Numbered from the stretch's first letter, positions 3,527 through 60,200 are shown. The stretch: DNA of 64,000 nt from Amoebophrya sp. A120 (GCA_905178155.1 CAJINV010000011.1:3009144-3073143); one strand, 5' to 3'. The notes: generated by a model not told the origin, from the letters alone. Numbers and translations are program-made.

Positions 3527-6500
3527 TCACAACCCCCCAGCACTTCCTCGCCCCCGGAGCAACTCTTGCAGCGGCGTGCCGAAGAATTCTCCCACATGCG
3601 AGCCATTATGGATTGCAAAAATATCTGGGTCTGGAAAAATGCAACGTCTGTCATGCATATTTTGCATGACCCATGAAGTCTGTGATGCATGCTCTAGCAT
3701 CACATATTTTGTAAATGCTTTCTGATGCCCATACAGCATGAGAAATTCCCTCTCCGCGTAGCGAAAACTGGACCCCTTTTGCTGTTCATGCAAAACAGAT
3801 TTTTTGGGAATCCAAAAACAGCACCACAATCTGTCGAAGATATTTCTATACTTTTCCCTCTATCTCTCTACCCCTACTGCCACCTCTACTCTCTAATTTT
3901 GTACTTCGAACAACTTACGTAAACCGAAAGCAAAGTGCCTGGCTTAAGTTACCACTGCTGCTATTTTTCGTACCCTGTGGTCGTTGCCTGTAGCAAGCGA
4001 CGAGCTTCATTAACATTGGCATGCTCGCGGGTCGTGCTGTGAAACCACTCGTAAAAATCAAAAAAAAAAACTTTCTCTGCAAAACAAAAACGGAGCTGCG
4101 CGCGCACTAGAGATCGAAAAGGCAGCATATGCGTGTTTTTACATCCGGACCAGGCGAGACGTGCAAACGATCATACCGCGCTAAGTGCAACGGCGTTGCG
4201 AAAGCGCAAGAGATCGAAAAAAGTTAGGTCAGAAGAGATCGAGCACGTGTTTTCCATCGGGACAAGGCGCGACGTACGTCTGAGAAAGATACAAACGAGT
4301 GTTAGCCCGGGGAGTTAATGACTACTACTAAAAAACGGTCGTCGATGGTCCTAGAAAACGAACCTTTTTACATCGGGACAAGGCGAGACGTATAGATTGA
4401 GAATACCGTGCTAAGTGCAAAACAGCACGAGTGAGAGATCTTGCAAAGGCCACCAGAGATCGAAAAAAGTTAGATTAGAAGCGGGACCAGGCGAGACGTG
4501 TGTCTGAAAAAAAGTTCTACCAAACAGCTAAGAACGAGCTTTAGTGTGGGGAGATATATAATAATTGTCACTACGAAAACGCCCACATCTCATGTGACTC
4601 GCTCTTTTTGAAAAAAACACAAACTCAAAAACCACTTGAACCAAGGCTCCACTACTTCTCGCGAAACGCCGTTAATGGGGTGAAAAAAAACTCGTCGCCG
4701 GGGGAAGGTGCGTTGATCAGGCTACTTTTATAGCATTTTCGGAGTTTTCGGGAATTCTTGCTCTTGCTCAGTCCGCTGCTTCCCGCCCTGCGTCGATGCG
4801 AAGCCCAGCTTCATAACACAGGCGGCCGTATTCAATTCCCCGCCGCGCAGCACTCGTGCTGTAGGATTCTATTGGGATTTGCACTTTTTGCGGCATTGCT
4901 GTCGTTGAAGTTCCGAAATAGCTCTGTGACCAGTTTACTCCTACGTATTCCCGGTCCTTCGTTGTGTCGTTCAGTGTGCAGCCAGGGTAGAAGTCGCGCC
5001 GGAGTGGCTCCACTTCCTGGCCCCGCGGTACTAGTCGCGTCATCCCGAGGTCGTCGATGTACCGCTTGTGGAAGAGGATCCGGCCGGTGTAGGTGCGATC
5101 AATGCGGCCGCCCATTTCCTGCACTATCCCGAAGCAGTTCGAGATCTCCACCATGAGCGGCGGGCCCATCGGTCCCCCGCCAGTTTGTCGAACTACCCTG
5201 CCCATCACCCTGCACACGGAAAACTTCGCGTCGATCTTCGGGCTGCGTGTGATGACGTCCGCGCGAAGGTGCCAGCACTCTTTTCCGTCTGGCTTTTTCT
5301 TGAGAAATCTGATCCCCCTTCTTGGTTTCGCGATGCTGCGCGCCATCATCGACTTCGTCTGTATCTTGTCGTTGTAAAGTTTCCCGATCCGCTTCCGCGC
5401 GTGCTCTGCCTTGTGCATTTCCACCCGCTTCAGGTGCGGACTAGTCTTCTCAACCGCAAAACACCGAACGCCGCATCTCGTATAGTCGTTTGCCCGTCGT
5501 TCTACCAGTTCAATTGCTTCTGCAACGTTGCACCGCGTGAAGAAGTCCTTCAGGTCCCCTGTCTCGAAGAGTAGGACCCAATTGGCCTTTTCGTCTGGTG
5601 TGAGTGCGTTCCAGACGCGGTTGCAATCCTCCAGAGCTTCTATCACCTCCTGCTGTGTTGCGAAGAGAAACTTGCTGCACTCCGGTGCCATGACTCTACG
5701 GATCACGCGCGCGACCTGCCGGAACCAATCCCGGTAAACATGCTTGAAGTAGGACGTGATTGGTCTGTATGCTACTGCAGCCCCGGGTAGCTCTTCCAAT
5801 GCAAAGTCCCTCTTGCCGTCTTGTTCCATCGCTTTGAACATTTTGGCCGTCAGCATTATTTTCAGGAACGGCCAGCGGTGGTTGCGTTTGCAGAAGATGT
5901 GGCTCAAAGGTTTTCCGCCCCTCCGCCTGTCCTTGTTTTCGTCAGAGAGCGCAAAAAACTCTTTGCTTTCGTCGTAGTTTTCTAGCCCTTTCCAACCGCG
6001 GATCATTTCGTAATCGTTTTCGATGTGCTTGAGGAGGCAGTGCGCGATTACGTTGTGGCATGCGAAGAAGATAGACCGCGACTTGTCAACCTCCCCCACG
6101 TACAGATGCTGAGCTAATTGCCTGGCGACGTCCGTAATGTCATCCTGCGTGGCATAAGACTTCTTCTTTTCCCATGCTGTGGACCGGGCAGAAACTAACA
6201 CATCCGCCACCTCGTTCCCTGTCTTCAGCACCCCGCTCTGCTTTTGCCACTGTTTCCGCGCTTTCGTAACGCACTGCACTACTTCTCTTCGGGTCGGTGC
6301 GAGCGTGCCAATGCGATTCCAGTTCCCTATCTCTCTGCCCCCGATGCTAACAAGCGAGAAACCAGACGTGGCGGGCTCGCAGACAGTGTGTCCGTCGATC
6401 GTGGTCAGGTCGGGATACTCGTTCTTCAGGAATTCGCGCGCGCAGTGCATGCCTTGCCCTTGTCGTAGTCTGTGCGCGGCCTGGTCGTGGAAGTGCTTCA

Positions 6501-8012
6501 AGTTTGTTCCTAGTACATCCAGCACCTTCCTCGCCCTAGTTCTCTTGACTCGTAGTACCCGTACTGGCCCGCGTAGTTCCTGGTCCACCGTGAGCGAAAG
6601 GGCGAAGTATCTCCGCACGCTATTGAGGAAGGCCGGGCTGAGATCGTTGACTTTGATTGTTGTTACAACTACTTGCCTCCCCTGTGCGTAGTGCTGGAAG
6701 TTGCTGTTGAAGATGTAGCACTTGCCGGGGTCAAGAAGCTGCTTCGCTTTTTGCTGGAAGGCCTGCGCAGTTCGTGGCTGCATCGCGCGTATCTTGTCCT
6801 GGGTTGCCTTACTGGTCCCCAACCTCTTCGACATAGCCAACATGATGCGCGTGTGCTCATTGGTGGTCTGGTCCAGGTTCCTGGCCTGCAGGAGTTGGAA
6901 AGCGTGTCGCGGTGCTGCGCTGGAGACGCCGTTGCTGCCGGTCCTTGTAGACTTGAACGCCTTGTGCTCCCGCCGTGTGATCACATACGTCTTCCGGATG
7001 TTTGCGACCTTCTTGCAGAATTCGCCCGCTATCTTCCCCTGCGAGTTTGCGCTTGCGTTAAACCAGTTGATGAGCACCAGCTCTGCGGCGTCTAGGTTCG
7101 TCCGATTCTTGACTGGTGAAACCATGAGGCGGAAAACGACCCAGCTGCAAACGCCATCTCGATGGAAGGAACCCTGCAGGAATCCCTTTCGTGTTTCATC
7201 TGCAACGCCGGCCCAGTGTGTTTCCGTGCGCTCGTACTTCGTGCAAATGGATCTCCCTACATACAGCTTGCGCATCACAAGTTACCAACCTCCAGACCCA
7301 GACATTTTTACATTTGATACCCATCCGGCATTTGCAAATCCAACAGTCCCTCCAACTTCTTCACAGCGGCCGGCAGTTTTTCAGGCTCGTCGAACGACCC
7401 TCCCAAAGGACAGCCCTCTAAGTGCAGCGTCGTCAGCGTCCTCGGAAGCTCGGTTGGAAAGTCCTCGGCAACGAGGGGGCAGCGATCTACGCGGAGACTC
7501 GCCAGTTTATTTTCCGGGAGGGCTGGAAGAATTTGTAGGTTCGTGTCGTGTACCGACAGCTGTTCTAGCTCTTTCAAGTTCGCCAGACTCGGCAACGCTT
7601 TGAACTGATTCTTGCTGGAGGACGAGTTTTGTGCGTCTACCCCTCCGAGAAAGAGGCACTTCAGGCCGGTCAAGCGCGACACACTTTCGGGCAACGCGAG
7701 AAGACCGCACCCACTCAAATCCAGCTCCTGCAACGTATGGAACTCAAGCGGAAAGTCAGGAAGGTTCCCTTCCGGCGACGGCGTCAGGGGAAAGAGATCG
7801 CAGAGAATCAACGTGGTTGGGAGATGAAGATGATCTGCACTACCACTATTGCTGTCCCATTCCTTTCCCGCAGATCCTTCAGCTCCGAGCGGGCCCGTGA
7901 GCATGCTGCCGCTGCGAGCTCGGGCTACTAGCGGCTGCCAAGCCAAGAGTTCCGCACTTCTGGCGGGACTATGGCCGCTCGCATTTTCGACGGCGGGGCT
8001 TGCGGTCGTCAT
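3527..8012 (-). CDS. Leucine-rich repeat protein, two exons (8012-7321 and 3602-3527) split by a 3.7-kb element
   Basis: LRR motifs LQELDLSGCGLLALPESVSRLTGLKCLFL and LKELEQLSVHDTNLQILP. Removing 3603-7320 joins LLDLQMPDG to SHVGEFFGTPLQELLRG in frame. Confidence 0.8.
3830..7271 (-). mobile_element. Penelope-like retroelement (N-terminal endonuclease type), apparently 5'-truncated
   Basis: Contains the RT ORF plus ~0.9 kb of repeat-rich 3' sequence. Flanked by GCACCACAA (3821-3829) and GCATCACAA (7272-7280). Confidence 0.8.
4110..4570. repeat. Imperfect tandem direct repeats (~230 bp x2) downstream of the RT ORF
   Basis: Core GGAC(C/A)AGGCG(A/C)GACGT four times (~4147, 4260, 4376, 4484). ATACCG(C/T)GCTAAGTGCAA twice and AGAGATCGAAAAAAGTTAG twice. 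Confidence 0.75.
4768..7275 (-). CDS. Partial GIY-YIG endonuclease + Penelope-type reverse transcriptase
   Basis: ~835 codons without a stop. N-terminal LYVGRS..ERTETH..AELVLINWFNASAN is GIY-YIG-like but lacks the first GIY motif. RT motifs: VDKS, YRPITS, TGDLKDFFT (A), QTGGGPMGPPLMVEISN (B), RYIDDL (C), EYVGV (E). Confidence 0.85.
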   Translation of the reverse strand: MRKLYVGRSICTKYERTETHWAGVADETRKGFLQGSFHRDGVCSWVVFRLMVSPVKNRTNLDAAELVLINWFNASANSQGKIAGEFCKKVANIRKTYVITRREHKAFKSTRTGSNGVSSAAPRHAFQLLQARNLDQTTNEHTRIMLAMSKRLGTSKATQDKIRAMQPRTAQAFQQKAKQLLDPGKCYIFNSNFQHYAQGRQVVVTTIKVNDLSPAFLNSVRRYFALSLTVDQELRGPVRVLRVKRTRARKVLDVLGTNLKHFHDQAAHRLRQGQGMHCAREFLKNEYPDLTTIDGHTVCEPATSGFSLVSIGGREIGNWNRIGTLAPTRREVVQCVTKARKQWQKQSGVLKTGNEVADVLVSARSTAWEKKKSYATQDDITDVARQLAQHLYVGEVDKSRSIFFACHNVIAHCLLKHIENDYEMIRGWKGLENYDESKEFFALSDENKDRRRGGKPLSHIFCKRNHRWPFLKIMLTAKMFKAMEQDGKRDFALEELPGAAVAYRPITSYFKHVYRDWFRQVARVIRRVMAPECSKFLFATQQEVIEALEDCNRVWNALTPDEKANWVLLFETGDLKDFFTRCNVAEAIELVERRANDYTRCGVRCFAVEKTSPHLKRVEMHKAEHARKRIGKLYNDKIQTKSMMARSIAKPRRGIRFLKKKPDGKECWHLRADVITRSPKIDAKFSVCRVMGRVVRQTGGGPMGPPLMVEISNCFGIVQEMGGRIDRTYTGRILFHKRYIDDLGMTRLVPRGQEVEPLRRDFYPGCTLNDTTKDREYVGVNWSQSYFGTSTTAMPQKVQIPIESYSTSAARRGIEYGRLCYEAGLRIDAGREAAD

Positions 8013-8443
8013 GATTGACGGAGTTTTAGTTTTTCGAGGTCGACGCTATACCTAGACGGTGAGAAAATGAAAATGGCTTTTGTCGAGAGGAAAATATCTG
8101 TATATAACGAGCAACGTCATAAAGAGCTATTCGCAAAGGTTCGGCTTCGTGACTGACTCAGAGAGGAGCATTTTGTGTCACATTCGAATTTCATCTAGAC
8201 GAGGTCACGCATCTTCACATTTCGTGCTGCATGTTGCGGTGCTAGAATAAGGATCCTATCTCGAATAAAACTCTTTGAAGCACGAATCGCGGACCAGATC
8301 AAGAAGATCTCGCAAGGAACGCTAAGAAAATCTGATCTTCGTTCACTGACTTCGACTCCTTCTTCTACCAAATAGAAATAATTAGACGAGTTCGAATTTC
8401 CATCCGACTCACAATGTGCCTATACCTAGTAGACGCAATGAGT

Positions 8444-19052: not shown

Positions 19053-19336
19053 TAATTTAGTTGGGGATGCGGGGGTGAAGGTGGTGACAAACGTGACGAG
19101 CACGAGTATGATGAAACGAAGTTACTTACTCACTCAGTGTCACAGACTTCGTCGACAACGCAAACTTGTTGCGTTTATTCTCCGATAAAGAGCAGCCTGA
19201 GCAGAGTTCTCCACGGACCTGGCTGAATAACTCGCTCACTCTGTTTTGCACAACAAAACAGAAGATTCTAAAAGGTACACTGAACACCCCATACTTCATT
19301 CAACAGAGCTAACGTCCGCAACGACCTCTTGGCTCG

Positions 19337-24290: not shown

Positions 24291-25735
24291 CTAGCAGCAG
24301 GCGACCACAGGGGCCGGGGTCGCGAGCTTTGAAGCATCCACCGCGCCAGTGACGTGAGTGTCGGTGGCAACGTCTCCGGGCGGCGGCGAACTTTCATCAC
24401 CCGCTGGTTCGGGTCCGGGAGCCGGCGGACTGCTGTCACCCCCCGCAGGTCCGGGTCCGGGAGCCGGCGTACTGCTTTCACCCCCCGCAGGTCCGGGTCC
24501 GGGAGCCGGCGTACTGCTTTCACCACCCGCAGGTCCGGGAGCCGGCGTACCGATCCCCGTTCCACCACCCACAGGTCCGGGAGCCGTCTCGCATTTCCCG
24601 CAGTAACGACTGATCCCCGTGACTTTGTTGTTCGACGGTAATGTCGTCAATTTCAGGTCGTTTGGGCCCGCAATGCCGACGCTGTTATCAAGTGTAAAAA
24701 TGTCTGGGTCTGGAAGAATTCATGTTTGTCATGCTTGTCTGGCATGGCTCTTCAATCTGTCATGCACGTTACCCAAGAGCTCCGCTTTTCTGTGATGCAG
24801 AAGCGCAGTTTGTCATGCAGAATTGGCAACACCTAGGAGCTCAGAAACTTGTCATGCTGAGCCAGCATCTGTAGCCTCATCATGAGACGCCACCCAGCAT
24901 CACAAGTTTCCAGACCCAGACATTTTTACATTTGATAGCTGTTCTTGAGGAACATTTCACAAGGGCGAATGATGCTGCTCTTGTAGTACTGCGCGATTCC
25001 CACACACTCATCATTGTCTTCACACTCCTGCTTGCACAGCTCGCGATCTTTGTCGCCTCCTTCTCCATCTGCCAGGTGTGTCAGCATGTCTTGTAGGGGT
25101 GTGCTGCCCGCGTTCGTGTCGCCCGTGTCCTCCACCCAACACCCCGCGTCCTCTGCCGCCGCGTCCAATGTCTTCCAAGTGCCGCAATCCTCTGCCCCGC
25201 ACTCAGGCAACCACTTTTCCCGCATCGCTTCGCAGCCGCAAAACGTTTCTGGATCGCAATAGCGGCTGATACCGAACAACGGTATCGATAGTTGCAAGTT
25301 CGAAAGCTGAATGGCATTCGCCGATCCATCGATTTTAGGTTCGAAATCTTCGGCGCCACGCATCAGAGCACACGCGTCGCGCTGGGCGCGGATCCGCTGC
25401 ACGATACCGAGGCAGCCGGGGGTGTCCGCGCAGTCTTGCTCACACTTGTTACGACTTCTGATTAACGCCCCGCCCAGCACTGCCTGGTTTTTCAACCCAG
25501 AGATGGTGCACTGCTTCTGCTCGCCAATTTGCTCGATTTGTTTAAACACGCCACAGTCCTTGCCCATTTCGCAAAGCGGCAGCCATTCGTCGCTTTTGTT
25601 CTCGCACGTGTCCCCGTCATCTTGTTCCCCTGCCCGGCGCAAAACGACCTGAAAGCCCTGCGTCAGGTTGTTTTCACTGGTGTAAAAGTCGAGTAGCACC
25701 GCCGGAGCTACCCGCCGCAACGTGGACAGCGACAT
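24291..25735 (-). CDS. Cys-rich protein with two PAN/apple-like modules and Pro/Gly repeats, split by an introner
   Basis: CEQDCADTPGCLGIVQ and CKQECEDNDECVGIAQ. Removing 24686-24937 plus one TSD joins FLKNS to VGIAGPNDLKLTTLPSNNK in frame. Termini uncertain. Confidence 0.65.
24400..24590 (-). repeat. Coding tandem repeat (~42-bp unit, APGPGPAGGESSTP)
   Basis: About 4-5 copies of CCCGCAGGTCCGGG..CCGGGAGCCGGCGTAC. Confidence 0.85.
24686..24937. mobile_element. Family-A TIR introner (252 bp)
   Basis: ~30-bp TIR TATCAA(G/A)TGTAAAAATGTCTGGGTCTGGAA; TSD GCTGT; frame restored on removal. Confidence 0.95.
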
Positions 25736-34693: not shown

Positions 34694-35428
34694 GGTGGTC
34701 AGGTTAGTACTGCGGCAAAAAAATGGGATTTCGTAAATCTTGTATAGGATGCTGTCCTGTTTGATGTTCTAGTTTGTCGTTCCTAGTCCTCGTTAGCGTA
34801 TGATGAAAGCAAAAAATTTTCAAGTAGTTTACTTTTTTAGTGCACCTGTGAGTTACATTTCGGGAAAGTATCCTCAAAAGATAATTTTCAGTGGAAGAGC
34901 GATCAATCTTCATGTTGATGCGCGATGGCGCACTGTCCTAGTGATCCTCAGATTTTTCCGGATAATTTGCCATCATCTTTACACCTTTCATTCCATACGT
35001 TTCGGATCGGAAAGATTTCTCTTGGCTGTTGATCAAGATCCTCGTATCAATTTTCTATGTTCTTGACGAGTGAATCTCGAGATGGCTTTCCTTGTTCATA
35101 CAGAAAACAGATCCGGAGCGAAAAGACCACATTTATTATAGCACACTATGTGTGAGTCTGTAGATTTTTCGCAAGAAGATCTTCGCCGGATAAAAGGCAG
35201 TACTTAACACTCGCGTCCTCACACGTGATTGTTCTCCGGGATATTTTTCACCATCCGTAATTGAAAAAATTCTCCATTCTTGTTCTTTCAGAAATGAAAC
35301 TGACCCGAAAAGAAGTCTGGAAGGTGTGAGCGTCGCTGATATTGATGGGGACTTAAATCGCATTGACTGGTACAACTATCGCACGAAATTCAAATAAGTA
35401 AGAACGCGGCAACTGAATTGCCCAGCAC

Positions 35429-38405: not shown

Positions 38406-39404
38406 CTTGATGTATAATAACTTTGTCGTAATCGTATCGATTAAGAAAAAACAAAAACTCGGTTGAAAATAGAAAATCTCATTCACTCTTCCTCTTGTTT
38501 TGAACTCTTCTATTAGTTCTCGAGATCGGCTGTTAATACATGGAACGGAAAGTCATTCATAGGAACCATCACAAAAATGTCAAGAAAGATTCTCATCCTC
38601 ATGAATTCATTGAGGATCTAGTACCAGGATAGGAAAGGACTAAAGGCGTTTCAAAATGCAATTTTGCGAGCCTACCGGATCGATTCCGATCAAATTATGC
38701 ATACGCTGATTTTAAACCAATTTGTCTGTCTCCTCTCCAAAAAAAATTGCCAAAAAATGAAATCGTTCTCACGTATCGAAAAACTAAAAGCAGAATGAAA
38801 AAGCGTACACCTATCGATATCTAGTTGTAGCGGCTTGTGCGGAAGACGATGGTGTTTTCATCGTTCTTGGGTTCATTTGTATCATCGGCTACTCTCCGCT
38901 CGAAACTCACAAGGAGAAGAACGCAATCACGAGAACAAGAACCTACGCAACAATGCGAAACAGGCATGGGCAGGGCTAAGCAACAATGCATGACGTTTGA
39001 CAAACGAAGAAAACGCTCTTCCCGAGTGCTGAATGTACTGGGCCGATCGTGATCGCAATCGCAATCTCAACAGATTTAAAAGGAAACATATAGATCAAAT
39101 GTTTTCTTCCTGGTCTCAAAACCTATTCACAAGTGGTCGTAATGGGGCTTTTAACAAACTGGTCGCTATGGCATTTTGGTGAGGCGGGTTGTCGAGCGTC
39201 AATACGGTGCAGCAGCTCGTGTCGTTTTGTCTTTTGCAATTGCAATAAATCTAAATATAATCCAGGTCGCTAAATATAACATTCTTGTTTTCCGTTTTTC
39301 AATACCAACAGATGGATTTCAATTTCAAATCGAAATAAACTCATCAACATGGCCTCCACACTATTTCCAGCGAAGTCCACCCGCCTTCACGAGCAGCAAT
39401 TCTA

Positions 39405-42512: not shown

Positions 42513-44846
42513 TTACCACACGCCGAGCATTGCGGCGACGAGCGCAGTGCCGTAGCCGGTGGCCCGCTCCCCCTTGTAGGCCGGACTGGCCATGTCGATA
42601 TGCACCCACGCGCCGCTCCACTTCTCCTCAATGTGCGCTCGGATGAAGGAGGCGGCGCAACTTACCTGAAAGAATGTGAGTGTTGTGTGTCTCGTACTTT
42701 TCAAAAAATTCTCCCGACAAAACAACCAAGTTTTGTAGTTCCTTCACATTGCAGCTACTTACGTTTGAGTTCTGATCATAACTGGGTTTCGTAATCGTAT
42801 ATGCGTAACCATGCTGCTACATATTCCACATTCTACAACTCACATCAATACCTGTGCATTCGCCCGGTTTGCGACCGAATTTTTCATGTCTGCGCAGCTG
42901 GACTTGAACTCTTCCATGTGGAGCTCCGGGCAGTAGGGCAGCGGCCACACGAGTTCTCCGCTCTTCTGCGCCGCGGCCAGCACTTTTTCCTCCCACACTT
43001 CGCTGTCCGAGACCATGCCGGCGTGAAGCTGCCCGGTGGCGATGCCCTGCGCTCCGGTGAGCGTGGCCATCGTGAGAATCAAATCCGATTTCAAGTCCTT
43101 ACTGGCGTACGCCACGCCGTCGCCCAGGACCAGTCGGCCCTCTGCATCAGTGTTGTTCACTTCCACCGTTTTCCCGCTGTACATGTGCAAGATGTCGTCG
43201 TTCCGAAACGCGGTGGCCGACACGGAATTCTCCGCGATGCAGAGCAAACAGCAGATGTTTTCCTTCACCTCCGCGCGGACGGTGGCGAGAAAGCCGGCGA
43301 AGACCCCCGCAGACCCACCCATATCGCGCTTCATCCCGCACATGCCGTCGCGCGGCTTGATGGCAAGTCCGCCCGTGTCGTAAATGATACCTTCAATTTA
43401 TCGTAGATAGTTGGAGATGGACTATATTGACTCGCTTCCACACACCAGTTGGCGTTCTCTCATTCTAGTACGACCAACCAGGACCGATGACCATGCCGAT
43501 GGCTCGCACACGAAACAAGAGCTGATCCAGGAGCTACTAGTACCTTTCCCGACTAGCGTCTTGAAGGGCTTCGTGCTGTCCCCACTGCCGGCATACTTCA
43601 TGATCAACAGCCTGGGCGCCCGCCCCTCGTTGAATTGCGCACCCTTGCCGACTCCCCAGAGGCCGCCGAAACCCCGCTTCTCGAGCTCCTTCCCCTCGAT
43701 CTTGTCGATTTGCACGGTCAGGTAGGACTGCAGTGCCTCCCGCACAAAGTCCTCGAAGGTCTGTGCGGTCAGGTGGCTGGGCGGCAGGTCCACCAGGACC
43801 TGGGCTATTCTGATGCTCTCGCCCACAATCTGCACGCTCTTCGGCACACCAGTGGTAAACGTGATCATCTGGTCTTTGATCTCGCTGGTCTTCAGGTTGC
43901 AGGACGGGAACGCACGGTAGACGGACAGTGCCCAAATCGCGTCTTTTACCGTGTTGGTTTTCGCGATTATCACTCCGATCGCGGCGCTGCAATACGGTCG
44001 TGTTTTTACATCAAGTGCTGCTATCACGCGCCGCGTCGTAGGTGTCGCAAACACAAATTTGCTTTACTAGAGCGTACTATGATCTTCACAGGTAAATCGC
44101 AAGAGCAACGAAAGCGGAGATCTTTCTGAAAGAAACCACGGAAGTTGTTCAATCGGCCTGTCGTGTTTGAAACAAACAAGTGCTAATACAAAACCTGCCT
44201 GCAAGGCTCCACATTCGAATTAAGTAAGTCATTACGAATTGTTCATACCTGGAATTCAGCAGCGGATCGGCCTGCAGGGCTTTGACGACAAAGTCAGGTC
44301 TCGCGGTGGAGTTGTGTCTACTGGTGTCATTGGGGACCACAATCACCGACACGCTTTTTTTCGCGGCCACTAAATGCACGCCCTTGAAGTCCACACGCAC
44401 CCCCAACAGGCCGCGCTCCTTCGCCAGCGCTTCTGCGGCCTCCTTGGAGTCCGCTATGATGATGTTGTGCTCGTAGGAGGTCTATCAAATGCCAAAATGT
44501 CTGGGTCTGGAAACTTGTGATGCTGAATTGCGCATGATTGAAGCGCTTTCAATGGCAGCCAAGCATGACAGGTTTTTGAGAGGCCTGCTGATCATGCCTA
44601 GCACGCATTACAAATTGCGTTTTCGCATGACAAAGAAAGCTTCTCTTTTGCTGCTTATGCAACACAGATTTTCCAGGAATGCATGACACGCATTACAAGT
44701 TCCACTTTTCCAGACCCAGACATTTTCACATTTGATAAGGTCACCTCCGGGACCACTCTTATCTTGGCCCCATTCTCCACCTCACGCTGCACGATGCCGA
44801 GGGTCCGCTGCCGCTTGGGCTTGGGACCCGGACTCAAGTTCGCCAT
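42513..44846 (-). CDS. NPEPL1: M17 leucyl aminopeptidase, NPEPL1-like, multi-exon
   Basis: LVGKG-IIYDTGG, GMKRDMGGSA, NNTDAEGRLVLGDGVAYA, MATLTGAQGIATG, ADMKNSVANRANAQ-VSCAASFI, WVHIDMASP..ERATGYG. GT-AG introns plus one introner. Confidence 0.92.
44483..44737. mobile_element. Family-A TIR introner (255 bp)
   Basis: Family-A TIRs; TSD AGGTC; removal joins PEVT-SYEHNIII. Confidence 0.95.
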
Positions 44847-46147: not shown

Positions 46148-49100
46148 CTAGCCGATCTTGTATTGGTTCATCCTGCGAATGTTTTCCCGAATTTTGGTCT
46201 GAATCCGCACGCAGAACTCCCGCGAAACCTTGACCAACTTCGGCGGGAACAGGGACAGGTTCTGTCCCCGGTACCGCTTCTCCTCCTGCGGCAGCCCGCC
46301 CGCCGCGATGCGCACGATGGCCTCGCAGAACTCGGGGTAGGTCATCCGCGTGCACTCATGCTCAGTTTGCTCGCACGCCCGCGGCTTGTACTTCTGCGCC
46401 AGGGCAAAAATGCACGCGAGGTGCCGCGCGGTGAAATTTCGGTCGTTAATGCGCAGGATGTAGATCAGCTGCATAAAACCCGCCTTGTGCGTGCCGTACC
46501 GCAGATACCTGATTTATTAACATGTGACAAGGTCGTGTTTGGGTTCCACGTACTTACATTTGTCCTTGTCTGTCGTGTTTTGCAAGGTATGATCGATTAT
46601 GATTAGCTGCAAGTCGTTGTCGTGCAACACAAGAACCTTGAGGAAAAGTAAAACACGTAAAAACCAAACTCGATAGTACGCGTCCTTGAGAATGTCCATG
46701 CAATCGTAGGTCATTTTGTTCACGATGGGGTTCTGCATGACGCTTTTGCTGAACGGGTTGAGTGGGTACCCAATGGCCTTCCGCAACCTCTTTTCGACCA
46801 ACAGTGTCAGCGACTTCGGCGCGTCCTTGGTGCTCGGCTGGGGGTACAGGGTGATCCCCACGAGGAGACAGAGATGCACGAACTCGTGGCGGAAAAAGCG
46901 GACGGCCGAGTGCCCGACGGACTCGATGAACTTCATCAGTTCCAGGGAGGAAACCTCCGCACTCACCATCTCGTCAAAAAAAGCCATCACGTCGACGGAC
47001 CGCACGTACAGCTCGCCGCCCGTCAGGAGCGCTGTTATAATGACGAATTGTATAATTTTCAATCTCCGGAATGGGAGTCATGCTCAACACACGACCGGCG
47101 CATTTCTTCATTTTCATGGCTCTATGTACATGCAAGGAGCTGGTTATCGCAGTTGTGCCATGTGTTGAGTGACATCAAAAAGAAGGCGACCATCTTCATC
47201 AGAAATAAACGAAACCAAAAAAACAAAATCTAAATCTAGCGAAATCATTGTCATACAGAACTGCATGATTTATACCGTAGCTCTGGTAGAGCTCCAGGTA
47301 GTGTTTCTTGATGGTTTTCCGGAACAGTTTATCAAATGCAAAAATGTCTGGGTCTGGAAGATTCCGGGATTTGTCACGCAGTTTCTCAAAGCTCCGCCAG
47401 GTCTGGAATGCAGGGAGTAGCATCACACGTTCTGCAGCCCCTTGGTAATGCCTATTAATTCTGCATGAGAAATGTCCTCTCCGCATGGCCAGAAGTGCGG
47501 ACCTTGTGCAAGTCATGCAACACAGATTTTTGTATGATCCGCAACACGCATCACAAGTTCGCATTCTTCCAGACCCAGACATTTTTACATTTGATACAAT
47601 TTCTCCTCGTTTTCGCCGCAGATCCCTTCGAGCGAGATCTTTTTCATGTCGTAGTCGTAGCATTCGTCGAGCCGGTCATGTTCCTCATCGTCCACGTACT
47701 CGCGCTGGAAATGCTCCAGCGACTTGTCGTGAACTTCCCCGATCATCGGCGCCCGGTGGTGCAGCTGCACCTGCGCCACGGGGCTCGCGGTGGGGTAGTG
47801 GAAGTGGTGGATTCGGCGGTAGTTTACGAAGTCGGGCATATCGTCGTCGATGTCGAAGAGGCCGAAGATCGACTCGTATCAAATGCAAATATGTCTGGGT
47901 CTGGAAACTTGTCATGCTCATACACGAATGAAAAAATGACTAGAGTATGCAGCCTAGCATGACAGATTTTTCAACGGTCCTGTGGTGTGCAACACGCATG
48001 AGAAACTGCGTTTTTGCATGACACAGAAGCAGCGCTATTCCGCAACACGCATTACAGAGTTTGGGAGTATGCGAGTTCAGCATTACAAGTCTTGCATTCT
48101 TCCAGACCCAGACAGTTTTACATTTGATAACTCGATCGACGTGACGTTTTCCGCCATCCCCCCGGGCGCGTTCGAGGGCTTTTCCAGGTTCGCCTCCGAG
48201 GCTTTGGACACGGACTTCAAAAAGTACTCCCGGTACCACTTGCCCTTGTTGCGAATCTTCAGGTGCGGCTGGTCCTGCGCGTGGAACATCTTCCGCGTCG
48301 CCGGGTCGTAGAAGAAGTAGTAGACGAATTCGCAGTAGCTGGGCACCCGGCAACCCACCCGGAAAACGTGATTGCGGTTCGTCTGGAGGACCAGGTTCAT
48401 CGGCACGATGCAGTAGTCGTAGAACGAGGCGCAGTATGCACTGCAAATATGTCTGATGTCTGGAAGAATGCAACTTGTGATGCGATTTTTGGAATCTAAA
48501 AAAATCTGTATTGCATGAGCAGCAAGAGGCGTCCAGTTTTTGCTCCGTGGAGAGGGCATTGATTTCTCATGCGGTTTAGACATCAAGATGCCCCCCGCAA
48601 AACATCAATCTTTGATGCTGGGGCATGCATCACGGACATCACGGGTCATGCGAAAGGTGCAGGCAATCTTCCAGACCCTCCAGACAACATATTTGCATTT
48701 GATACGCAGAGGTGCACCGAGTGGCCGCTCTGGCTGCCCGACCGGGGGAAGTTCCACACGAACTCCTGCATCTGCACGCGGTCCGCCACCCAGGACCGGC
48801 TCAGCTTGATCGTGTTGTGCGGTTTGGCGCAGTGGATCGGGTGTGGTACCACCTGCCGCTCCAGCGCGTGAAAGTCGCTGTGCTGCCCCAGCGGGACGCC
48901 CGAGGAACTGTCCCCCGTGGCCCCGGACCGCACGCTGTGGTCCAGCGAAGTTGTGGTTTGGTCCATCTTGTTCATCTGGGTCGTGGTGGAAAAAAGCGTC
49001 GGCGCAGCAAGCAACGAATTGTTCTCCTGTTCTTTGTTAAAAAGCGGCGAGTTGTTATCTCCTGCACCGCCGACCAGACTGGGGTCCTGCGCCAGGGTGC

Positions 49101-52100
49101 TCAACTCTGAGGACAGGTCGAAGGTCCCGAAACTGTGGTTGTGGGCGGAGGACTGCTGTTGGCGTAAGAGTTGCTGCTGCTTCAGCAGTTCCTTCTGCTT
49201 TTCCTGTTCCTTTTTCTCGTATCCAACAGAAAAAAGCTGGCAGCGCATCTTTCTCTTTGTAATGCGAAAATAAATACACAAAAAGATCTCTATTGCATAT
49301 CCGAAACAGCATGCTCCGGGCCACCCATGACAAGTTTTTCTGTGTCTTTATTTTTGCATTACAGAAATGCCCTGCCAGTTTTTTTCTGTGTGATATCTCG
49401 TTCTGCTTGGCCATGATACGCTCGATTTGCTCCTGCTTGGTCATTATGAAATGCGAAAGTGTCTGGGTCTGGAAGAGTGCGCGATTTGTCATCCTGCTTT
49501 TCCATGACCCATGAGGTCTGGAATGCAGGGCCTAGCATGACAGATTCTGCGCGCTCTCTCTCATGCCTATCCTGCATGAGAAACTCCCTCCGGACTTGGT
49601 CAAAACTGGACGACTTTTGGTAATCATGCAACACAGATTTTTGCATGCTTCAGATTTAGCATGACAAGTTGCAACCTTCCAGACCCAGACATATTTGCAT
49701 TTCATAGTCACCTGCGGCGGCCGGTTTTTGAAGTAGTCCTGCGGCGCGTTTCTCTTCCCCGGCCGCTTGGTCACGACGTGCCGGGATTTCTTTTTACTCG
49801 GACTCACGCTCAGGGAGTGCATCGAGCTGTTCAGCGAGGAGGCGGAGTCCCGGTGCCGCGAAGTCGCGTCCCCGAGAAGTTGTCCCGGCGCGCCGGCACT
49901 CGTCGTGTGGTTCTGCATCAATCCGCCAGCACCTATCGTGCCGCTCCCCGACGCGGTAAAGCTCGTGTTCATCGGGTTGCTGTTCGAAAGCAGCGTGCTG
50001 TTTGTCGCGTTCATCGTGCCGTCTCCTGCCCCGGTCTGCGAGTCCACGCTGGTGGACCGCTTCTGCCGGCCGTCCCGCCCGCGGCGGCCCTGCCGCGACC
50101 CGCTGGTCTGGTACGACGTCTCAAAGTAGTCCACGGCGCGCTGATGCTCCAGGTTCGAGGTCGCCGTGCTGGTCCCGGCGTCTGTGAAGGAGGTCGTGGT
50201 GTTGGCCGCGCCTGTTGCCGAAAGTTGCTGGGCTGTCAGAGCTACAACTGGACCACCTCCAGCACCGGTGGTCGAACTGGCCGCGGCGAAGGCGCTGTTC
50301 ATCATCCGCCCCCGTGTGCTGATACCCGCCCCGGAGTTGTTGATGGTACCAGCTGCCGCATGATCGGGGGGAAAACCGACGGTGCTGGTGGTAGAGGGCG
50401 GCGTGTACAGGGAATCCGACGACACCGCGGCGTGCGATTGCAAAAACTGCTTGCACGCCTCCAAGTGCGGCACGGTCAGCAGGGGCGCGGGCGCCTCCAG
50501 TGCGTCGCAGTACCACACGCAGAAATCCTTGTTCGCCGCCTCGAAGATTCCCGAGTCCGGGATCCCCAGCATACCGCTCGTCGGGGAGTGCGGCGAAGAT
50601 GAACTCGTGGTCTTCACGGCGTCGGCTTGGTGGTGGTGCGCAGCGGCCGCTGTTGATGTATTTTTCATCTTCGATGGTGCACCTCCACCAGCTGTTGAAT
50701 TGTGATGCTGCGGTCCTCCTGTTGCGTCCTTCCCCGCGGTCGTGCCACTCATCAGGGCGTGCGCCTCAGCCTGCTCCGCCGCGACTACCGCGGACTGCAA
50801 CAAGCCCGTCGCGTTCGTCACGTTCGTGACCAGGTCCCGGTACCCGCCCCGGATCCAGTGCGCCTCCCGCGTAGCGACGCCCGCGAGCTGCTTTCGCTCC
50901 GCCTCGGCAACCACCCGCGTGCGGGGGTAGTGGTAAAAGTCCCGGCAAAACAGCGCGCGCCAAATCACGACGTTCTCCGTCCCGCGCTCCTTGAAGTGGT
51001 TGTGCCACCCGCGTTCCTTCAGCAGACTCTGCTGCAGCGTGCACTCCGGGAGACTGGCGTGGATGCAACTAAGGAGCACCGCGCGGTTGAGGAGACTCCG
51101 AAACGCCCCAATCACCGTGTGTCGTTCCTCCTCGACTTTATTGACGGCCCCGCCGCCGTCGGAGTTTAGCTTCGACTTGTTGCGCTCGGTCGGACTGAGG
51201 GAGGACGACGTGTGGTGCGACCCGCGGTTCGTGGTGGCCCACATGTCCGAGGTGGAATTTGGGTCCTTGAGCGTTCCGCCGGAGGTTGTGTTCGCGAAGC
51301 CGCCGGTCGAGGAGCTACCCGCGGTCCGGACCACCGTGGCGACCGTTTTCGCGTCGTCTTCGGACGTGAGGCCCAGCATCTTCTCGCCCCACCCGTTGTC
51401 CAAGTAGTTCCAGAACACGAGCGCCGGGTGCTTCTCGAGTGTTTGGAGGAGTAAAATCAGACTGTCGTCGCGCAGCAGCATCACCGACCGCATGGAAAGC
51501 GACTTGAGCGAGACGTTGTGCCGCAGCCCGGCGCAGAACGGGTGGATGCAGAGGTCCGACAGACCGGTCTCGTCCAGCACCAGCACCTCCAGCGACTTGG
51601 TGCGGCCCAGGAGCTGCTCGAACACCGACCACCCGCGCGGACTGAGCACGTTGGCCGTCAGGTCCAGCGTGTTCAGGTGCGTGACCATGGAGAGCGCGAG
51701 CACCGGCATCACCACGGGGTAGCCCTCCAGGTGCTCCACCTCCTCCTCCTCGCGGTGCCAGATGTCCGGCGGGTAGCCGTTCCAGTCCTTCCGGACTCGC
51801 AGCACGTCCAGCGCGTGCGAAAACATGCCGAACCCGTCCGGCACGGCACGTACCCGCACGCCGCGGTAGAACTTGCGCTCCTTCTTCAGCTGGTTGCGGG
51901 TGGCAACTAACGCCAGGTCCTGCTTACCCCGGTCCTTGCGCACGGTGTAGTGGTGCACCATGGAAAAGTCCCCGTCCTGCGGCGCGCCCACGTCCCCCCA
52001 CTCGTCCTCGTTCCAACCCAGGTTCGGCCGGATGCCCATGCCCTTGGCCGTCTGCAGGTACCGCCGAAGCTCGCCCCAAAGCTTCGTGCCGCGCGTGCGG

Positions 52101-55100
52101 TTCGGCTCCTCGTGCAAACGGTGCCGCCGGACGCCGGGCACGTTCACGTCGCCCGCGACGACGTCGCGCCTGTCTGCCAGAGTGGAAGCCGAGCGGCTGG
52201 AAGCTGTGTGTTTGTAGGAGACGGAATCAATTTTCTTTATCACATAATTCCGTTCGAAGAAACCATTTGTTCTCGACCATGTTCATGGAGACCTGCATGC
52301 ACTAACAAACTACAACTAGCATGTATGGTGCGCGCGCGCAGTTAACGTTATGCAAGAAAATAAACGCGTAGTACCCGAAGTTCCCTGTCGACTGGGAACC
52401 CGGCTTCCCCCGGTTCCGGATTCCAACAGGTGCTTGGGCACATCCCCCGCCTCGATCTGCGACTTCTTTTTGTACTTGGGGAGCGTGGTGGGTACCACCA
52501 CACCCTTGGTGGGCGACTCGGCCTGCAGCTTCTTGCACTCCGGGGACTTCGCAAAGTCCAACAGCGGCGACTTGCTGTACTCCGCATCCGCCCGCGGGTC
52601 GTTTGCCGCGAGCGGCGACCGCGGCTCCTCCGGAATGCCGCCCAGATGGTGGAGCTTCTTCAGAAAGCGGCCGTCGTCCGGCACGTCAGAAGGGTTGCTG
52701 CCCGCGGGCGGCATGGCGCGCTGCGAGGGGTCCTTCGGGTTGGGTCGGTACTTCGACGTGGCGTTCACCACCTGCACCGTGGCGGTCGGCGCCTGCTGCG
52801 AGGGCGCCTATCCACAGGAAATTATGGTTCATCCCCGTTCACGTACTACAAACGTCGCGGTCTCTGCAAGACAAAACTTGGCTCCGATCCTACTTTAGCA
52901 TCACAAGTGTTACATCACTCCAAAGTGGTGAAATTTGTCATGCATCTCGTACATATACGGGATGAAATTTGTATTGCATAGCGGCCGCGACGCGGTCACC
53001 TCGCTGGGGTCGTTCGCAGTGGTCGCGGCGGACCCGGCCTGGTCACCCGTGTTGGGCCTGTCCGTCCCTGTGCGACTGGAAGGCGACGCGGACACCTGGT
53101 ACCCCCGCGCGCGGTCGAGTAGCTCCGCCTCCTCCTCCTCTTGCTCCACCGTCTCAATCCAGTATCGCCCCAGCTGGTGGTCCTCGTAGCAATTCGCCCC
53201 GAGGCCCTGAAACACCGACTTCTCCCGCCGCGTCGCGTAGTCCGCCACGGCGCTGCGCGCGTGCTGCTGGTGGCGGGGCGAGGAAGCGGCGGCCGACCGC
53301 CGGTCGTCGTGCATGGGGCTGATGGGAACCACGGTGTCACTGTCACCCCGAGGATCGAACCCGTGGTCTTCGTAGGTGGTGGCCATTTTTCCCCGACTGT
53401 TTATCCCGCCACCCCGGCTGTGGCCACGGGACCCCCCGCGCGAGCCCATGATCTCGCGCCGCGTGGACTCCGGATCGGGGCCAGCACTTGGACCATGCGG
53501 TGCAGCTGCAGCTGTTGTTCCCCCGCCCGGGTGCTCCTCCACGCTGAACAGGGGTCCGCTGAGCATGCTGTCCTCGGCCGCGAGGGAGTCCTCCTCCCGC
53601 AAAATGTTCTCCCGCCGCGTGGGGTCGTTGTCCGTGTAAGCCGTCGTCTCGCCGGTCGCAGCCGCCTCCTCGCGCAACTGCTGCGTGAGTGCGTCTGTAC
53701 CGGAACCACCCCGCAGCGTCGGCGGCGGAAAATTCTCCTCGTCGTCGAGGGCTGCAGTTGTAGGTGCACCACCGCCAGCACCGCCCACATACGTGTCCGG
53801 TGTGCGCTCCACGTAGTCGTCGTTATGACCCTCGTCGTCGTAGTAATCCTCCTCCTCGTCGTCGTCGCGGTTATGGTAGTCGTCCTCGTTTAGTGGCCGC
53901 CTTCGCTCGTCCTCCGAATCGTCATATTCGTCCGGGTCCTCGTCGTCGGAGTCCCAGGCCTTGTACCCGGGGATCTCGTCCTCGGAGCCCAGGCCGCACC
54001 CCTTAAGGAACAAGTGTTGCAGGACGCAGTGCCGCCGCCGGGGGTACAGGGCTTTATACAAAAGCTGGATGCTCTGCAGGGACAGGTTCACGTTTTCCAG
54101 GTGCAGCGACGTGAGGGACTCCAGACAGGTGTTCAGCAGCAGTTCGATGCCCTTGTCGGGGATCAGGCAGTTGGTAACGGACAGAAACTGCGCACTCGGC
54201 ATGGTTATGCACCGCAAAAGGAAAAGCATCGCCCTAGTGTGATTCGCATTTACAAATTTGCTCAACATGAAATTTACCATGCAGAATTTGAATTACCTAA
54301 TGGTAATGCAAGACTGGCATATACGATAATTCTTTTGCACTGGATACTGGTCTCCAGCACCTTGCAGATGCTGTGGCAGTGCAGGACGGAGAGCTCCAGG
54401 TTCTTCAGCGTCAGGTTGCGGTACTTCTCGACCTCTGTGAACACTTTTTGCAGGTCCAGCCGGGGCAGTTCGTTTTTGTCGCAGTGCTTCTTGTACTGCG
54501 CCATGGGCCCGCTCAGGTCCGCGTCCGGGTCCAGCAACTTCACATTGGGGTCCTCGAGCAAAATCGTCGCTGCCTCGGCCAGCGCGGTGTGGCTGGTCTG
54601 CAACTTCTTTTCGCTCGACAGCTTCGCCACCGCGTTGGTCCACCTGCGTTTCGCCGGCGAGGTCGCGGCTGTTCCGTCGGTATTGCTGGTCGTGTTTGCA
54701 GCCAGTAGTTCCGGGCTCGACGGAGCAGCGGCGCCTTCTTCTACACTCGTCTCGCCGGGTTGTGTTGCAGCATGTGCTCCTGCTCCCGACGCGGAGGACT
54801 CAGCGGGTAATATTATCGAAGAGGACTGGACCGCATGTTGATCCCCAACAGATGGTCCCGCTGCAGCGCCGGATGTTGAACCCCCTTGAAGATGCTTACT
54901 GCTACTCCCCTCCGCATGAACAAGAGGACTTGGCGGTACCAATTGGTCCTTGCTGGCTCGCTCGCGACTGGGCGGCGGACGCGTGGTGCGCGTAGGGCTG
55001 TTGCGCTGGAAAATTCGCCGTTCCTCTTCCTTTCGATAGCGCGTGTGCACGTTCTTCGGGACCCTGCTTTCGCGCTCCGCGCGCGCGTCCAGCCGGCGGC

Positions 55101-57289: not shown

Positions 57290-60200
57290 CTAGAACTTGA
57301 ACTTCCTCATTTGACCGTGAGCGCATTTTGCATGCGTAGACTCCCGCCCGCAAGTGACGGACTGCCGTCGGTTATGGGGAGAAAAAGCAAAAGGACCCTT
57401 GCTACCACGAATTTCGCTTGAGGTCAAATACCAAATTTGATGATGAACTACCACCTGGAAGGCTTGCAAAATCTGTTTTGAGAAGTGCTCTAACATGGTC
57501 CACCGACGGCGACGTTCTGGTCGCATGATCAGGAGCAGAAACGCCAACACAAACATGCAAGAACAGGCAAACTCTAATCGTGGTCCTTTGTGTCCTCTTT
57601 TTTTTCTCATACTGGCCCGCGGGGGAATGACGGTGAACACATCCACCAAGTGGGGCTCGCTGACCTTGTTGGACAAATACTTGGAGGGCGCGGCGTCGTT
57701 CCAGGGATCTTCCTTCCTCGTGCGCGCGAGGGCGTCGACCTCCCAGTGCGGGCCGATGCCGTCGCCCGTTTGCTCGATCCCGATGGCCCACCCTTTGAGC
57801 ACGCCGTCGCGGCCGATTCGGCACCGCAGGAAGGACTTGTGGTCGGGGTCGCGGAGGGACACGAAGGCCTCCCCCTGGTGAATCCCGAGGAAGTACATGC
57901 CGAGGAACAGGAAAGATCCCATAATGAAGGCCGCCGTGGGGACGGCCGTGGCGTAGAAGTAGATCGACATGCCCAGGTTGTACAACAGCACCCACTCCCG
58001 CGCGACCGGTTCCGCGGCGCACATGGCGTGCTTGGTGGACACCAGCAGGTTTGGGAGCTCCACCGCCTGCATCAGGTTCAACAGGAGCGGCTGCAGCACC
58101 CCGCCGCTGTAGAAATCCAGCGTCTCCACGATGGCGGGGTGGGCGGAGATGGGCTTGCGGTTCTGCGGGGACAGCTCGAGCAGGGTTTCCAAAAACACGA
58201 CGAAAAACACGATGCAGAAGCTGTGCACCAGCGCGTGCGCCAGCCCCACGGCCCAGCGGACGGAATCATGCTTGCAGACCCCACACTGCTGCCCGTCGGT
58301 GAAGACGATGCCGGTGATGAGCAGAAAAACGTGGGTTGCCAACGCGACCGTGGTGGTCTGCCACATGTGGTGGTAGGCCTCGAGGAGGAGGAGCAGAAAC
58401 TGGTAGGCCGTCGTCAAGTACGAAGTCGTACCGATAAAACTGAGCCGCTCGCTGGTCAAAAAGCAGCAGGGGAACAGCCCGAGGGCCGCGCAGAGGTAGG
58501 CGATGCCGATCACAATGTCCGCCTGGTAGTTGCTCTTGCGCCACTTATATCAACTGCAAATATGTCTGGGTCTGGAAGATTGCCAGGTTTGTCATGCATA
58601 TATGGCATGACCAAGGTTGTCTGTAATGCATGACCTAGCATCACAGAATTTTACAGGGCTTCCTGATGCCTATTCCGCATGACAAATGCCTTCCCCGCGC
58701 AGCACGAACTCGACTCCTCTTGCACTACTTGCTGGTCATGCAATGCAAATTTTTTTAGAATCCAAAGCTAGCATCACAAGTCCCAACTTTCCAGACCCAG
58801 ACATATTTGCAATGCATAACTTGAACGGGATGGTTTTCGCCATTTGCTTCGTGGTTTCCGCACTGGGGTACATGGCCGCGGCGCGGTAGCTATCCTGTGC
58901 AAAAGTATCGTGCTCGTATTGCAGTCATGCATATACAAATCTTTTTTCTTGAGGTAAATCTGCATTACAAATTCAAATTTTCTCTCTCAGGCTGAGAACA
59001 TAATTTGTAATGCATTTATACGAGTACGATACTTTTGCAATTCATAGTAGCCCGCGTAGGGCATCTTGGGCTCGGTCGGGTAGGGCTGGTAGTTCTTGGT
59101 CAGCAGCTCCGGGTCCCCCCAGGGCGTGGGGTGCGTGAACGCACCCCCGCCGCCGGCCACGATCAGCGGGACCGCGTCCGCCTTGCTCTTCAGCGGCTGC
59201 CCCAGCCCGTCGCGCGTGACCATCTTCAGGTCGGGCTCGTACCGCATGTAGTGGTGCAGGTCCCCGGTCCACCGCATGGCCAGCACGTCCTTCATCACGC
59301 CGTGCAGCAACTGCATCAGCCACGGCCCGGTCTTCTCCCGGCTGGAGGCGTCGAAGCTGAAATTCGGGCGGTATCCTATATAAAAACGTCCCCACCCGAT
59401 AGTCAAGAAGATGGGGAATCGGCTAGACAAATCCACAAGTTTTTGCTGTTTCGCATGACAAATTTGGACTCGTAGTGTAGTGCTGTTTGGGCTAGTTCAG
59501 CAGCATCACAAATCTAGTGTATCACGCTGATTTAAGCATGACAAATTCCAGCACACGAACGAAAAATGCTTCTCATGGGGCTCCGCATGAGAAACACTGT
59601 CAGCATGCAAATTTGCATATACAACTATGAGGTGGGGACGTTTTTAAATACGATAGCCGGTGGGTGATCGCGATCACCCGGGAGACGTTCGGAATCAAGT
59701 CGTTCTCCACAAAGGTTTTGAAGTAGAGAAACTGCGTGGAGTCGATGTCGTTGGTCAGGCTGATGTCCAGCCCGAACACGAACCAATTCGGGTGCACCTG
59801 CGTGATGAAGTAGCTGTGGGTCTGCGGCATGTACCAACCCCCAAGCCACGCGCGGTTGCAGATCAGGTCCTGAAACGTGTCCAGGTTGTCGTACCAGTCG
59901 TGGTTCCCCGGCACCAGGAAACACAGCGGCCCCTCGTGCCCCTTCAGTTCTTCCGCCGTCAGCTTGTCGGTGGGCATCTGGATGGGCGACTTCTTCGCGA
60001 TCTTGCCCTGGTGGTCCTTGTTCTTCAGGAATTGGGCGTAGTAACCGCGCCGGGAGGCGATCTGCAGGCCGCCGTTGGACCGCCCGCACTTCCGGGAGTA
60101 CTCGTTCTCCTTCTTCAGCATGCACTCCAAGTGCACGGAGGTGCTGCCGCGCCGTATTATGCTCGCGCGGTTATTTCCGGCGAACCTGGTAGAACTACTA

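Follow-up and report, generated by a model that had tools for sequence, protein, structure and literature searches.

Introners with TAT…ATA ends in Amoebophrya sp. A120: removal from RNA and support for a fixed splice register

Twenty-two elements that interrupt coding sequence were characterised in a 64,000-nucleotide stretch of the genome of Amoebophrya sp. A120 (GCA_905178155.1 CAJINV010000011.1:3009144-3073143; hereafter the window, with positions counted from its first letter). They are a real feature and belong to an already known class, the introners of this organism. Each element starts with TAT, ends with ATA and lies between the copies of a 5-bp target site duplication (TSD) of unconstrained sequence; at the elements for which RNA joints were obtained, removal in RNA-like contigs is exact, and the elements are used in either orientation. 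Removal takes place at the RNA level, by splicing. There is moderate support for a single register in which the 5' cut falls 1 nt ahead of TAT and the 3' cut 4 nt beyond ATA; the intron would then read N-TAT…ATA-NNNN. We lean, if only slightly, towards a relaxed spliceosome acting at this fixed offset with help from the stem, rather than a new enzyme.

Anatomy of the elements and their removal from RNA

The elements had been described in an earlier reading of the letters of the window alone (the sequence-only reading), and were rebuilt independently by a scan for TAT…ATA stretches whose ends match and which lie between copies of a 5-nt repeat. A scan for exact repeats gave 15 elements, and 7 more were obtained by allowing one mismatch and by reading the sequence, so that all 22 were recovered with the lengths and ends first described: 20 elements of 141-311 bp and two long ones, of 3713 bp (3607-7319) and 3718 bp (27019-30736), with TAT at the start of 44/44 ends. 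The TSD rule of the sequence-only reading held at 22/22 elements in a looser form, the duplication being exact in 15 and carrying one mismatch in 7 (those starting at 3607, 47330, 49445, 52809, 54206, 58548 and 59372). With the thresholds set at 19/30 end identity or more and no more than one mismatch in the repeat, 21 pairs were found in the window (20 true and 1 spurious) and none in any of 30 dinucleotide shuffles; when end identity was lowered to 14/30, the window gave 26 pairs against a shuffle mean of 0.9. Because shuffles give pairs at 14/30, the elements at 52809 (14/30 ends) and 54206 (16/30 ends) have RNA as their basis, not the chance test.

Upon removal of the element plus 5 nt, a minus-strand frame of 25 or more open codons was present on either side at 22/22 elements, a result that is weak for the element at 32857, where two frames are open. 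Sliding the junction on the coding strand gave GT-AG borders for 1/22 elements, that at 37255-37533, and ordinary GT-AG introns were present in the same transcripts (7 joints). On frames, on the single GT-AG case and on the neighbouring ordinary introns, the sequence-only reading was therefore correct.

Removal was assessed by comparing RNA and DNA contigs over elements 5-22 (numbered by position, as listed below). Contigs of runs X3-X6, from two samples of one study, were classed as RNA by automatic guess and taken as such on the ground that they lack seven GT-AG introns, no run that contains the stretch being recorded as RNA, and run X1 behaves as DNA; contigs show the majority form only, and rare forms may escape. 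RNA-like contigs missed exactly the element plus 5 nt at at least 13/22 elements among the joints listed, by direct joints for elements 7-14 and 19 and by contig coordinates for elements 15-18, and for elements 20 and 22 one side was at the predicted place. The contigs that skip elements also drop 7 GT-AG introns, which identifies them as spliced RNA. DNA contigs crossed elements 16, 18 and 19 unbroken, without differences and at a depth of 23.6-25.3, like that of the flanks. As RNA-like contigs lack the elements and DNA contigs keep them, removal is RNA splicing. Elements 15 and 17, relatives in opposite orientation, were both removed. A raw RNA run, X9, gave only 63 partial reads, on repeats. 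The claim of exact removal of the element plus one TSD was thus borne out, and transcripts that keep elements or use cryptic GT-AG sites were not seen where RNA was checked.

The sequence-only reading had also considered excision from DNA, in some life stage, in the manner of ciliate internal eliminated sequences. No positive support was found for this, and contigs could miss a rare excised form. However, no such excision was apparent at the three elements covered by the listed DNA contig pieces, the element-skipping contigs skip GT-AG introns too, and damage to element ends varies with transcription direction (see below); DNA excision can be regarded as extremely improbable.

The elements are listed here; host frames are on the minus strand, and the strand of the element itself is left unassigned. 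Skips are those of RNA-like contigs.
Element 1, 3607-7319: ordinary introner of about 270 bp from the largest family, split by a retroelement insertion, in a leucine-rich repeat (LRR) protein gene (minus strand); TSD mismatch at the fifth base, coding strand.
Element 2, 24686-24937: largest family; 93% identical to element 7, in opposite orientation.
Element 3, 26553-26811: largest family.
Element 4, 27019-30736: 108-nt inverted ends and an internal tandem array, without the shared internal motif.
Element 5, 31532-31807: largest family; no RNA joint among the matches listed.
Element 6, 32857-33167: belongs with element 8 in one family; no RNA joint among the matches listed.
Element 7, 34314-34569: skip of 261 = 256+5, in 3 runs.
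Element 8, 35527-35835: skip of 314 = 309+5, in 4 runs.
Element 9, 35902-36159: skip of 263 = 258+5, in 4 runs.
Element 10, 37255-37533: skip of 284 = 279+5; the sole GT-AG case, at the 1+4 register.
Element 11, 37590-37803: skip of 219 = 214+5, in 4 runs.
Element 12, 44483-44737: in the M17 aminopeptidase gene; skip of 260 = 255+5, in 2 runs.
Element 13, 47330-47596: skip of 272 = 267+5, in 4 runs; upstream copy in RNA at the mismatched third base.
Element 14, 47877-48129: skip of 258 = 253+5, in 4 runs.
Element 15, 48435-48704: removal of 275 = 270+5, by contig coordinates.
Element 16, 49220-49395: lost with one duplication, 44 nt between it and element 17 being retained; DNA contig crosses unbroken.
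Element 17, 49445-49706: removed; upstream copy in RNA at the mismatched first base.
Element 18, 52809-52980: ends 14/30, no predicted pairing; exact removal, with the upstream copy retained in RNA at the second base; DNA contig crosses.
Element 19, 54206-54346: ends 16/30, no predicted pairing; skip of 146 = 141+5 in two samples, with the downstream copy retained in RNA at the fifth base; DNA contig crosses.
Element 20, 58548-58818: RNA-like contig piece stops at the predicted place, one side only.
Element 21, 58891-59046: no RNA joint among the matches listed.
Element 22, 59372-59655: RNA-like contig piece begins at 59656 without differences, so that the fourth base is that of the upstream copy; seen on one side and in one run.

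One superfamily in the window and in related loci

BLAST comparisons placed elements 1, 2, 3, 5, 7, 12-15, 17 and 20 in one large family, elements 6 and 8 and elements 10 and 22 in pairs, and the others as singletons; element 4 has only its ends in common with the large family. Across these groups, A is found at position 13 of 44/44 ends and at positions 11 and 12 of 35/44 and 38/44, respectively, and C or G at position 4 of 43/44. An 8-nt internal motif is shared by 19/20 short elements, with a density of 18.9/kb inside the 20 short elements versus 0.23/kb outside; chosen by eye in the window, it is also present in 287/288 oriented elements, 271 of which come from other loci. The sequence-only reading had spoken of six or more unrelated families of terminal inverted repeats. 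At least six end types do exist, but the features common to them mean that the elements are better seen as one superfamily than as unrelated families.

A wider sample was obtained by searching metagenome contigs with the main end motif, which yielded at least 148 loci, of which 144 (601 kb) were analysed. These contained 297 short end pairs, collected with no duplication required: the 5-bp repeat was exact in 225, carried one mismatch in 45 and was missing from 27. For repeat lengths of 3-9 other than 5, none gave above 6 exact cases among the 297 pairs (0 at length 6 and 1 at length 4). Relatives at 75-96% identity were found in these loci for 20/22 window elements, and none at E 1e-10 for elements 4 and 19. 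In elements oriented by the host frame, the repeat showed a flat base composition with no bias to GT or AG, in agreement with the unconstrained TSD sequence first described, and there was symmetry between the two ends. With frames called per flank, 126/137 elements with an intact repeat needed 5 nt kept (modulo 3), as did 4/7 elements without a repeat. The end motif had 0 matches in viral contigs, and Rfam gave 0 matches in the window.

End pairs without a 5-bp duplication include those at L005 10802-11125, L019 282-591, L056 7990-8301, L064 55-363, L032 5475-5802 and L043 1804-1957 (L numbers denote related loci), and several such pairs belong to the family of elements 6 and 8. If these are spliced, the repeat would not be needed and the register could be read from them directly. 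Among the 288 oriented elements, mismatches within the duplication were commonest at its first base (15, versus 8-10 elsewhere).

Statements on the literature refer here to parts of each source. Farhat et al. 2021 (PMC7789003) report A120 introners as RNA-supported, with ends starting TAT and 5-bp repeats in their Fig. S19, and in the sections drawn on they give no transposase in A120. Gozashti et al. 2025 (PMC12130899) file A120 family 38 as Ginger, with integrase-like homology, a 5-bp TSD and TA/TA termini. The rule of a 5-bp TSD and TA ends is therefore not new but already in print, and the link drawn in the sequence-only reading to Amoebophrya introners stands, since the window elements match the published class: inverted ends starting TAT with an A-run, 3-5-nt repeats, absence from RNA with non-GT-AG borders, and repeated families. 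The likeness to the published introners extends to the A-run about 8 nt further in, 5-bp direct repeats, a mean length of about 240 nt, many families, RNA support and occurrence alongside GT-AG introns, and there is no difference in kind. The elements are thus published, and their removal mechanism is open in the literature found: the parts of these papers drawn on leave the splice position variable or unknown, the 2021 paper marking it as unknown. Beyond those papers, one register fits here, a motif is common across families and end damage depends on direction; what is added is a testable splice rule and a nested retroelement.

The splice register and the machine that would read it

An exact repeat hides the cut, and a mismatch shows which copy enters RNA, so that mismatched duplications mark the cut. 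Read on the coding strand, the upstream copy was found in RNA at base 1 (elements 17 and 20), base 2 (element 18), base 3 (element 13) and base 4 (element 22), and the downstream copy at base 5 (element 19, in two samples). The number of upstream-copy nucleotides inside the intron is accordingly at least 1 for element 19 and at most 1 for element 22, 2 for element 13, 3 for element 18 and 4 for elements 17 and 20. A single register, the 1+4 register given above, fits these six mismatched duplications, and element 10 reads GT-AG at exactly this register. Host canonical donors read GTAY in 7/7 introns defined by RNA and in an eighth by arithmetic; the 1+4 register puts TAT at intron positions +2 to +4 and so makes the elements resemble these donors. 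In PMC7789003, Table S4 gives NT-NN at all 9 top A120 sites, which is not counted here as independent support because mappers slide within repeats. No published fixed register for these introns was found in the literature, although figures S19-S25 of PMC7789003 may show it.

A relaxed scan detected one damaged end in 35/348 elements, 30 of which were oriented by a codon model; this model was correct for 17/17 window elements and agreed with frame length in 130/143 cases. Over the 288 oriented elements, changes to the first T numbered 0 at the transcript 5' end and 7 at the 3' end (p 0.016), changes to the second base 0 and 2 (p 0.5), and changes to the third base 8 at the 5' end (6 TAC and 2 TAG) and 2 at the 3' end (p 0.11), TAC being one form of the canonical donor. 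Position 13 was altered 2 times at the 5' end versus 10 at the 3' end (p 0.039), the A-run at 11-13 of the transcript 5' end being better kept than the mirrored T-run at the 3' end. No effect of direction is expected from a symmetric DNA-level process, and direction-dependent damage thus speaks against it; the damage agrees with a 5' splice-site signal.

End-to-end pairing is predicted for most short elements, with z -7.1 for element 22, but elements 18 and 19, for whose ends no pairing is predicted, were removed exactly as well. On the transcribed strand there was no excess of G-U pairs over their A-C mirror (243 vs 272 pairs, in 85 vs 103 elements), and no folding advantage of the sense strand (153 vs 134). 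At positions 4-7, the bases of the two ends are unlike in 25-55% of elements, and the three outermost A-U pairs could therefore come apart. A candidate branch A within the terminal ATA, altered less at the 3' end (2 vs 8, p 0.11) among variable nearby bases, is only a lead.

On the account proposed here, an integrase-type transposase encoded at another site is the likely agent of insertion, and splicing is likely the work of a relaxed spliceosome, assisted by the stem, at one fixed register. Since 1+4 equals the duplication length, the exon would be restored whatever the target. TAT at +2 to +4 would mimic host GTAY donors, with +1 free. More tentatively, catalysis might fall to the U2/U5/U6 core with no recognisable U1 involved, and the position of the 3' site might depend on distance from the element end or the stem and not on AG. 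The Amoebophrya spliceosome is described as nearly complete, with U1 small nuclear RNA (snRNA) not detected (PMC7789003, section 10). Introns of Fritillaria borealis (PMC11282704, PMC13326754) are comparable in being transposon-derived, with inverted ends and duplications, and in their U2-type spliceosome of altered selectivity; by contrast, their element ends carry the splice dinucleotides (AG-AC, AG-AT), their +2 position is G-rich and U1 is conserved, whereas the terminal bases of the window elements come from the host target and +2 is T. A further source for the comparisons is 10.1101/2025.08.15.670264.

Several observations weigh against a relaxed spliceosome at a fixed register. No lariat, branch point or snRNA pairing was observed, and the GT-AG borders of U2-type introns occur in 1/22 window and 9/288 oriented elements; at the register, GT and AG are not enriched (G at +1 in 96/288, AG in 28/288, both in 9/288). 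The tight bounds on the register come from one element each, 19 and 22, the latter on one side and in one contig; for six random junctions, the chance of agreement with some single register is 40%, and codon scores are nearly flat by register (0: -256.7, 1: -257.8, 5: -262.6; n=27). The p-values for asymmetry are uncorrected for four positions, 5/35 damaged elements were dropped as unoriented (by open reading frame length, one of them has its second base changed at the 5' end), strand calls are discordant in 13/143 cases, and some damaged ends may be inherited copies and not independent. In addition, 5/7 changes of the first base at the 3' end turn A into G and retain a G-U pair, so that a stem explanation fits them as well. 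The 3' T-tract is less conserved than the 5' A-tract, contrary to a pyrimidine-tract role, and TAT is predicted to be paired in 15/20 short elements (probability at least 0.7 at the third pair), which would hide the donor site.

Some of these points would suit a second RNA excision machine, independent of the spliceosome, that reads the paired ends and cuts at fixed stem offsets, measuring 1 nt upstream and 4 nt downstream of the ends. Such a machine would be convergent with that of Euglena, whose nonconventional introns (PMC12501133) likewise have a proposed origin from miniature inverted-repeat transposable elements, paired ends, fixed asymmetric offsets and GT-AG introns alongside, and for which the authors favour non-spliceosomal factors. 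The predicted end-to-end pairing, the lack of GT or AG bias, the mostly wobble-compatible first-base changes and the undetected U1 (PMC7789003) are in its favour. The Euglena motif is CAG/CTG with offsets of 3 and 5-6 and a purine first in the next exon, whereas the window elements have TAT/ATA, offsets of 1 and 4, no exon base preference and a 5-bp duplication. Exact removal of the unpaired elements 18 and 19, the missing G-U excess and sense-strand advantage, and a register that places TAT on the host donor consensus are harder to accommodate, and 5' third-base changes break a pair yet are the tolerated ones (8 vs 2). Such a machine is conceivable but doubtful. The structure-guided second pathway of the sequence-only reading thus survives as a possibility for RNA, and not for DNA, and is not the best fit given the two unpaired elements, the absent G-U excess and the directional damage. 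If it were true, any TAT…ATA transposon with a 5-bp duplication would act as a seamless intron whatever its target and orientation, kilobase-long or retroelement-carrying elements included.

It is also unlikely, if less so than excision from DNA, that either machine splices without a single register, the cut sliding within the duplication. The chance rate of agreement among six informative elements and the display of majority forms only by contigs would allow this, and the legend of Fig. 3 in PMC7789003 draws the splice position as 'variable', with the border unknown. Yet the register that fits is the very one that gives T at +2, GT-AG at element 10 and a donor-like pattern of damage. A fixed 1+4 register, as preferred here, would turn 'no clear splice signature' into a rule, with T at +2 fixed and +1 and the 3' dinucleotide free, for which one-mismatch duplications serve as natural markers of the cut. 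It would correct gene models in such genomes, and would explain the tolerance of tens of thousands of exonic insertions and how an introner can shelter another mobile element.

Long elements and neighbouring features

The sequence-only reading had proposed a scan for long elements that encode a DDE transposase. The two 3.7-kb elements contain the following features.
3830-7271, minus strand: Penelope-like insert in element 1, with a 9-nt duplication (3821-3829 / 7272-7280) 8/9 identical.
4768-7281, minus strand: open frame of 837 codons, with a truncated GIY-YIG start followed by reverse-transcriptase motifs.
27158-29429: array of a 92-bp unit, 24.7 copies, inside element 4, with a partial inverted copy near the right end.

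The insert in element 1 sits at the internal motif of the introner: relatives match the left part of the introner as far as 3829, and the alignment picks up again at 7272. The first ATG (7275-7273) of the 837-codon frame is supplied by that motif. The protein had no Pfam reverse-transcriptase match and 0 hits in a PDB sequence search, and Atlas put it with GIY-YIG/RVT_1 clusters at 0.92-0.97. Its closest relative, P0001, is 45% identical and has a weak GIY-YIG match (E 0.003, below cut-off) that aligns to residues 4-70; the homology of the element 1 protein begins inside GIY-YIG, the first motif being absent. In all, 20 relatives were found, and those aligned share reverse-transcriptase motifs. 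The CxC linker motif is reduced to one Cys in the element 1 copy, and both Cys are present in P0001 and most full-length homologues. Naiad/Chlamys Penelope-like elements (Craig et al. 2021, PMC8557442) also have GIY-YIG before the reverse transcriptase, a DK motif and reverse-transcriptase motifs, and further likenesses are the 5' truncation and the lack of a hammerhead match; differences are the reduced CxC and that no pseudo-long terminal repeat was seen. In the main text of PMC8557442, the words dinoflagellate, alveolate and Symbiodinium are absent. From its sequence, element 1 appears to be an ordinary introner with a nested, 5'-truncated Penelope-like element of the N-terminal-endonuclease type.

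An unbroken frame of 837 codons between introner ends could suggest that this reverse transcriptase is the mobiliser and element 1 an autonomous introner. Inverted ends together with a duplication of constant 5-bp length are what an integrase, and not target-primed reverse transcription, would be expected to leave. In addition, the retroelement is inserted in a normal introner, at its internal motif and with a 9-nt duplication of its own, lacks the first GIY-YIG motif and had no tblastn match in the 601 kb of related loci; a mobilising role is thus very unlikely.

Element 4 is foldback-like, with its array on one side and a GC-rich interior containing 11-12-nt repeats. Its longest interior frame had no Pfam match, and no match of at least 60 nt was found in the related loci. 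A deletion may have produced it from a large element, and it is a possible probe for the autonomous one. With a retroelement insert in element 1 and no recognised frame in element 4, neither qualifies as a DDE transposase candidate. No integrase-like DDE frame was found in them, nor in 8 frames from 5/8 longer elements (457-1148 bp) of the 0.6 Mb of loci, and among 212 unpaired ends no further long element with a matching duplication was seen, bar one weak 7.4-kb pairing in locus L012. GingerRoot has TA…TA termini, as the window elements do, and an integrase-like transposase (PMC6839031), and elements of the GingerRoot/Ginger group resemble the window elements in inverted ends and a non-specific target. 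They differ in that GingerRoot and Ginger2 make 6-bp and Ginger1 4-bp duplications, against 5 bp here, and in the TG…CA ends given for Ginger (PMC6839031).

Other repeats were noted in the window. A direct repeat of about 52 bp (31857-31909 / 32592-32644) surrounds about 680 bp containing a 76-nt inverted repeat (32273-32438), a structure that is possibly another kind of mobile element. A 42-bp unit is repeated 4 times in coding sequence at 24391-24581, adjoining element 2. The GT-AG intron at 36212-37177, of 966 nt, holds a 549-bp repeat that is 79% identical to a stretch in L061/L062. The transcript at 35243-38628, whose product may be PC4-like, contains two similar exon sets, with no Pfam match on a 55-aa piece; four introners lie at different places in its two repeats, so that each repeat provides the empty site of the other. 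Every gene examined is on the minus strand, as would fit unidirectional gene clusters; among them are genes for an M17 aminopeptidase, a SET-domain protein and an LRR protein.

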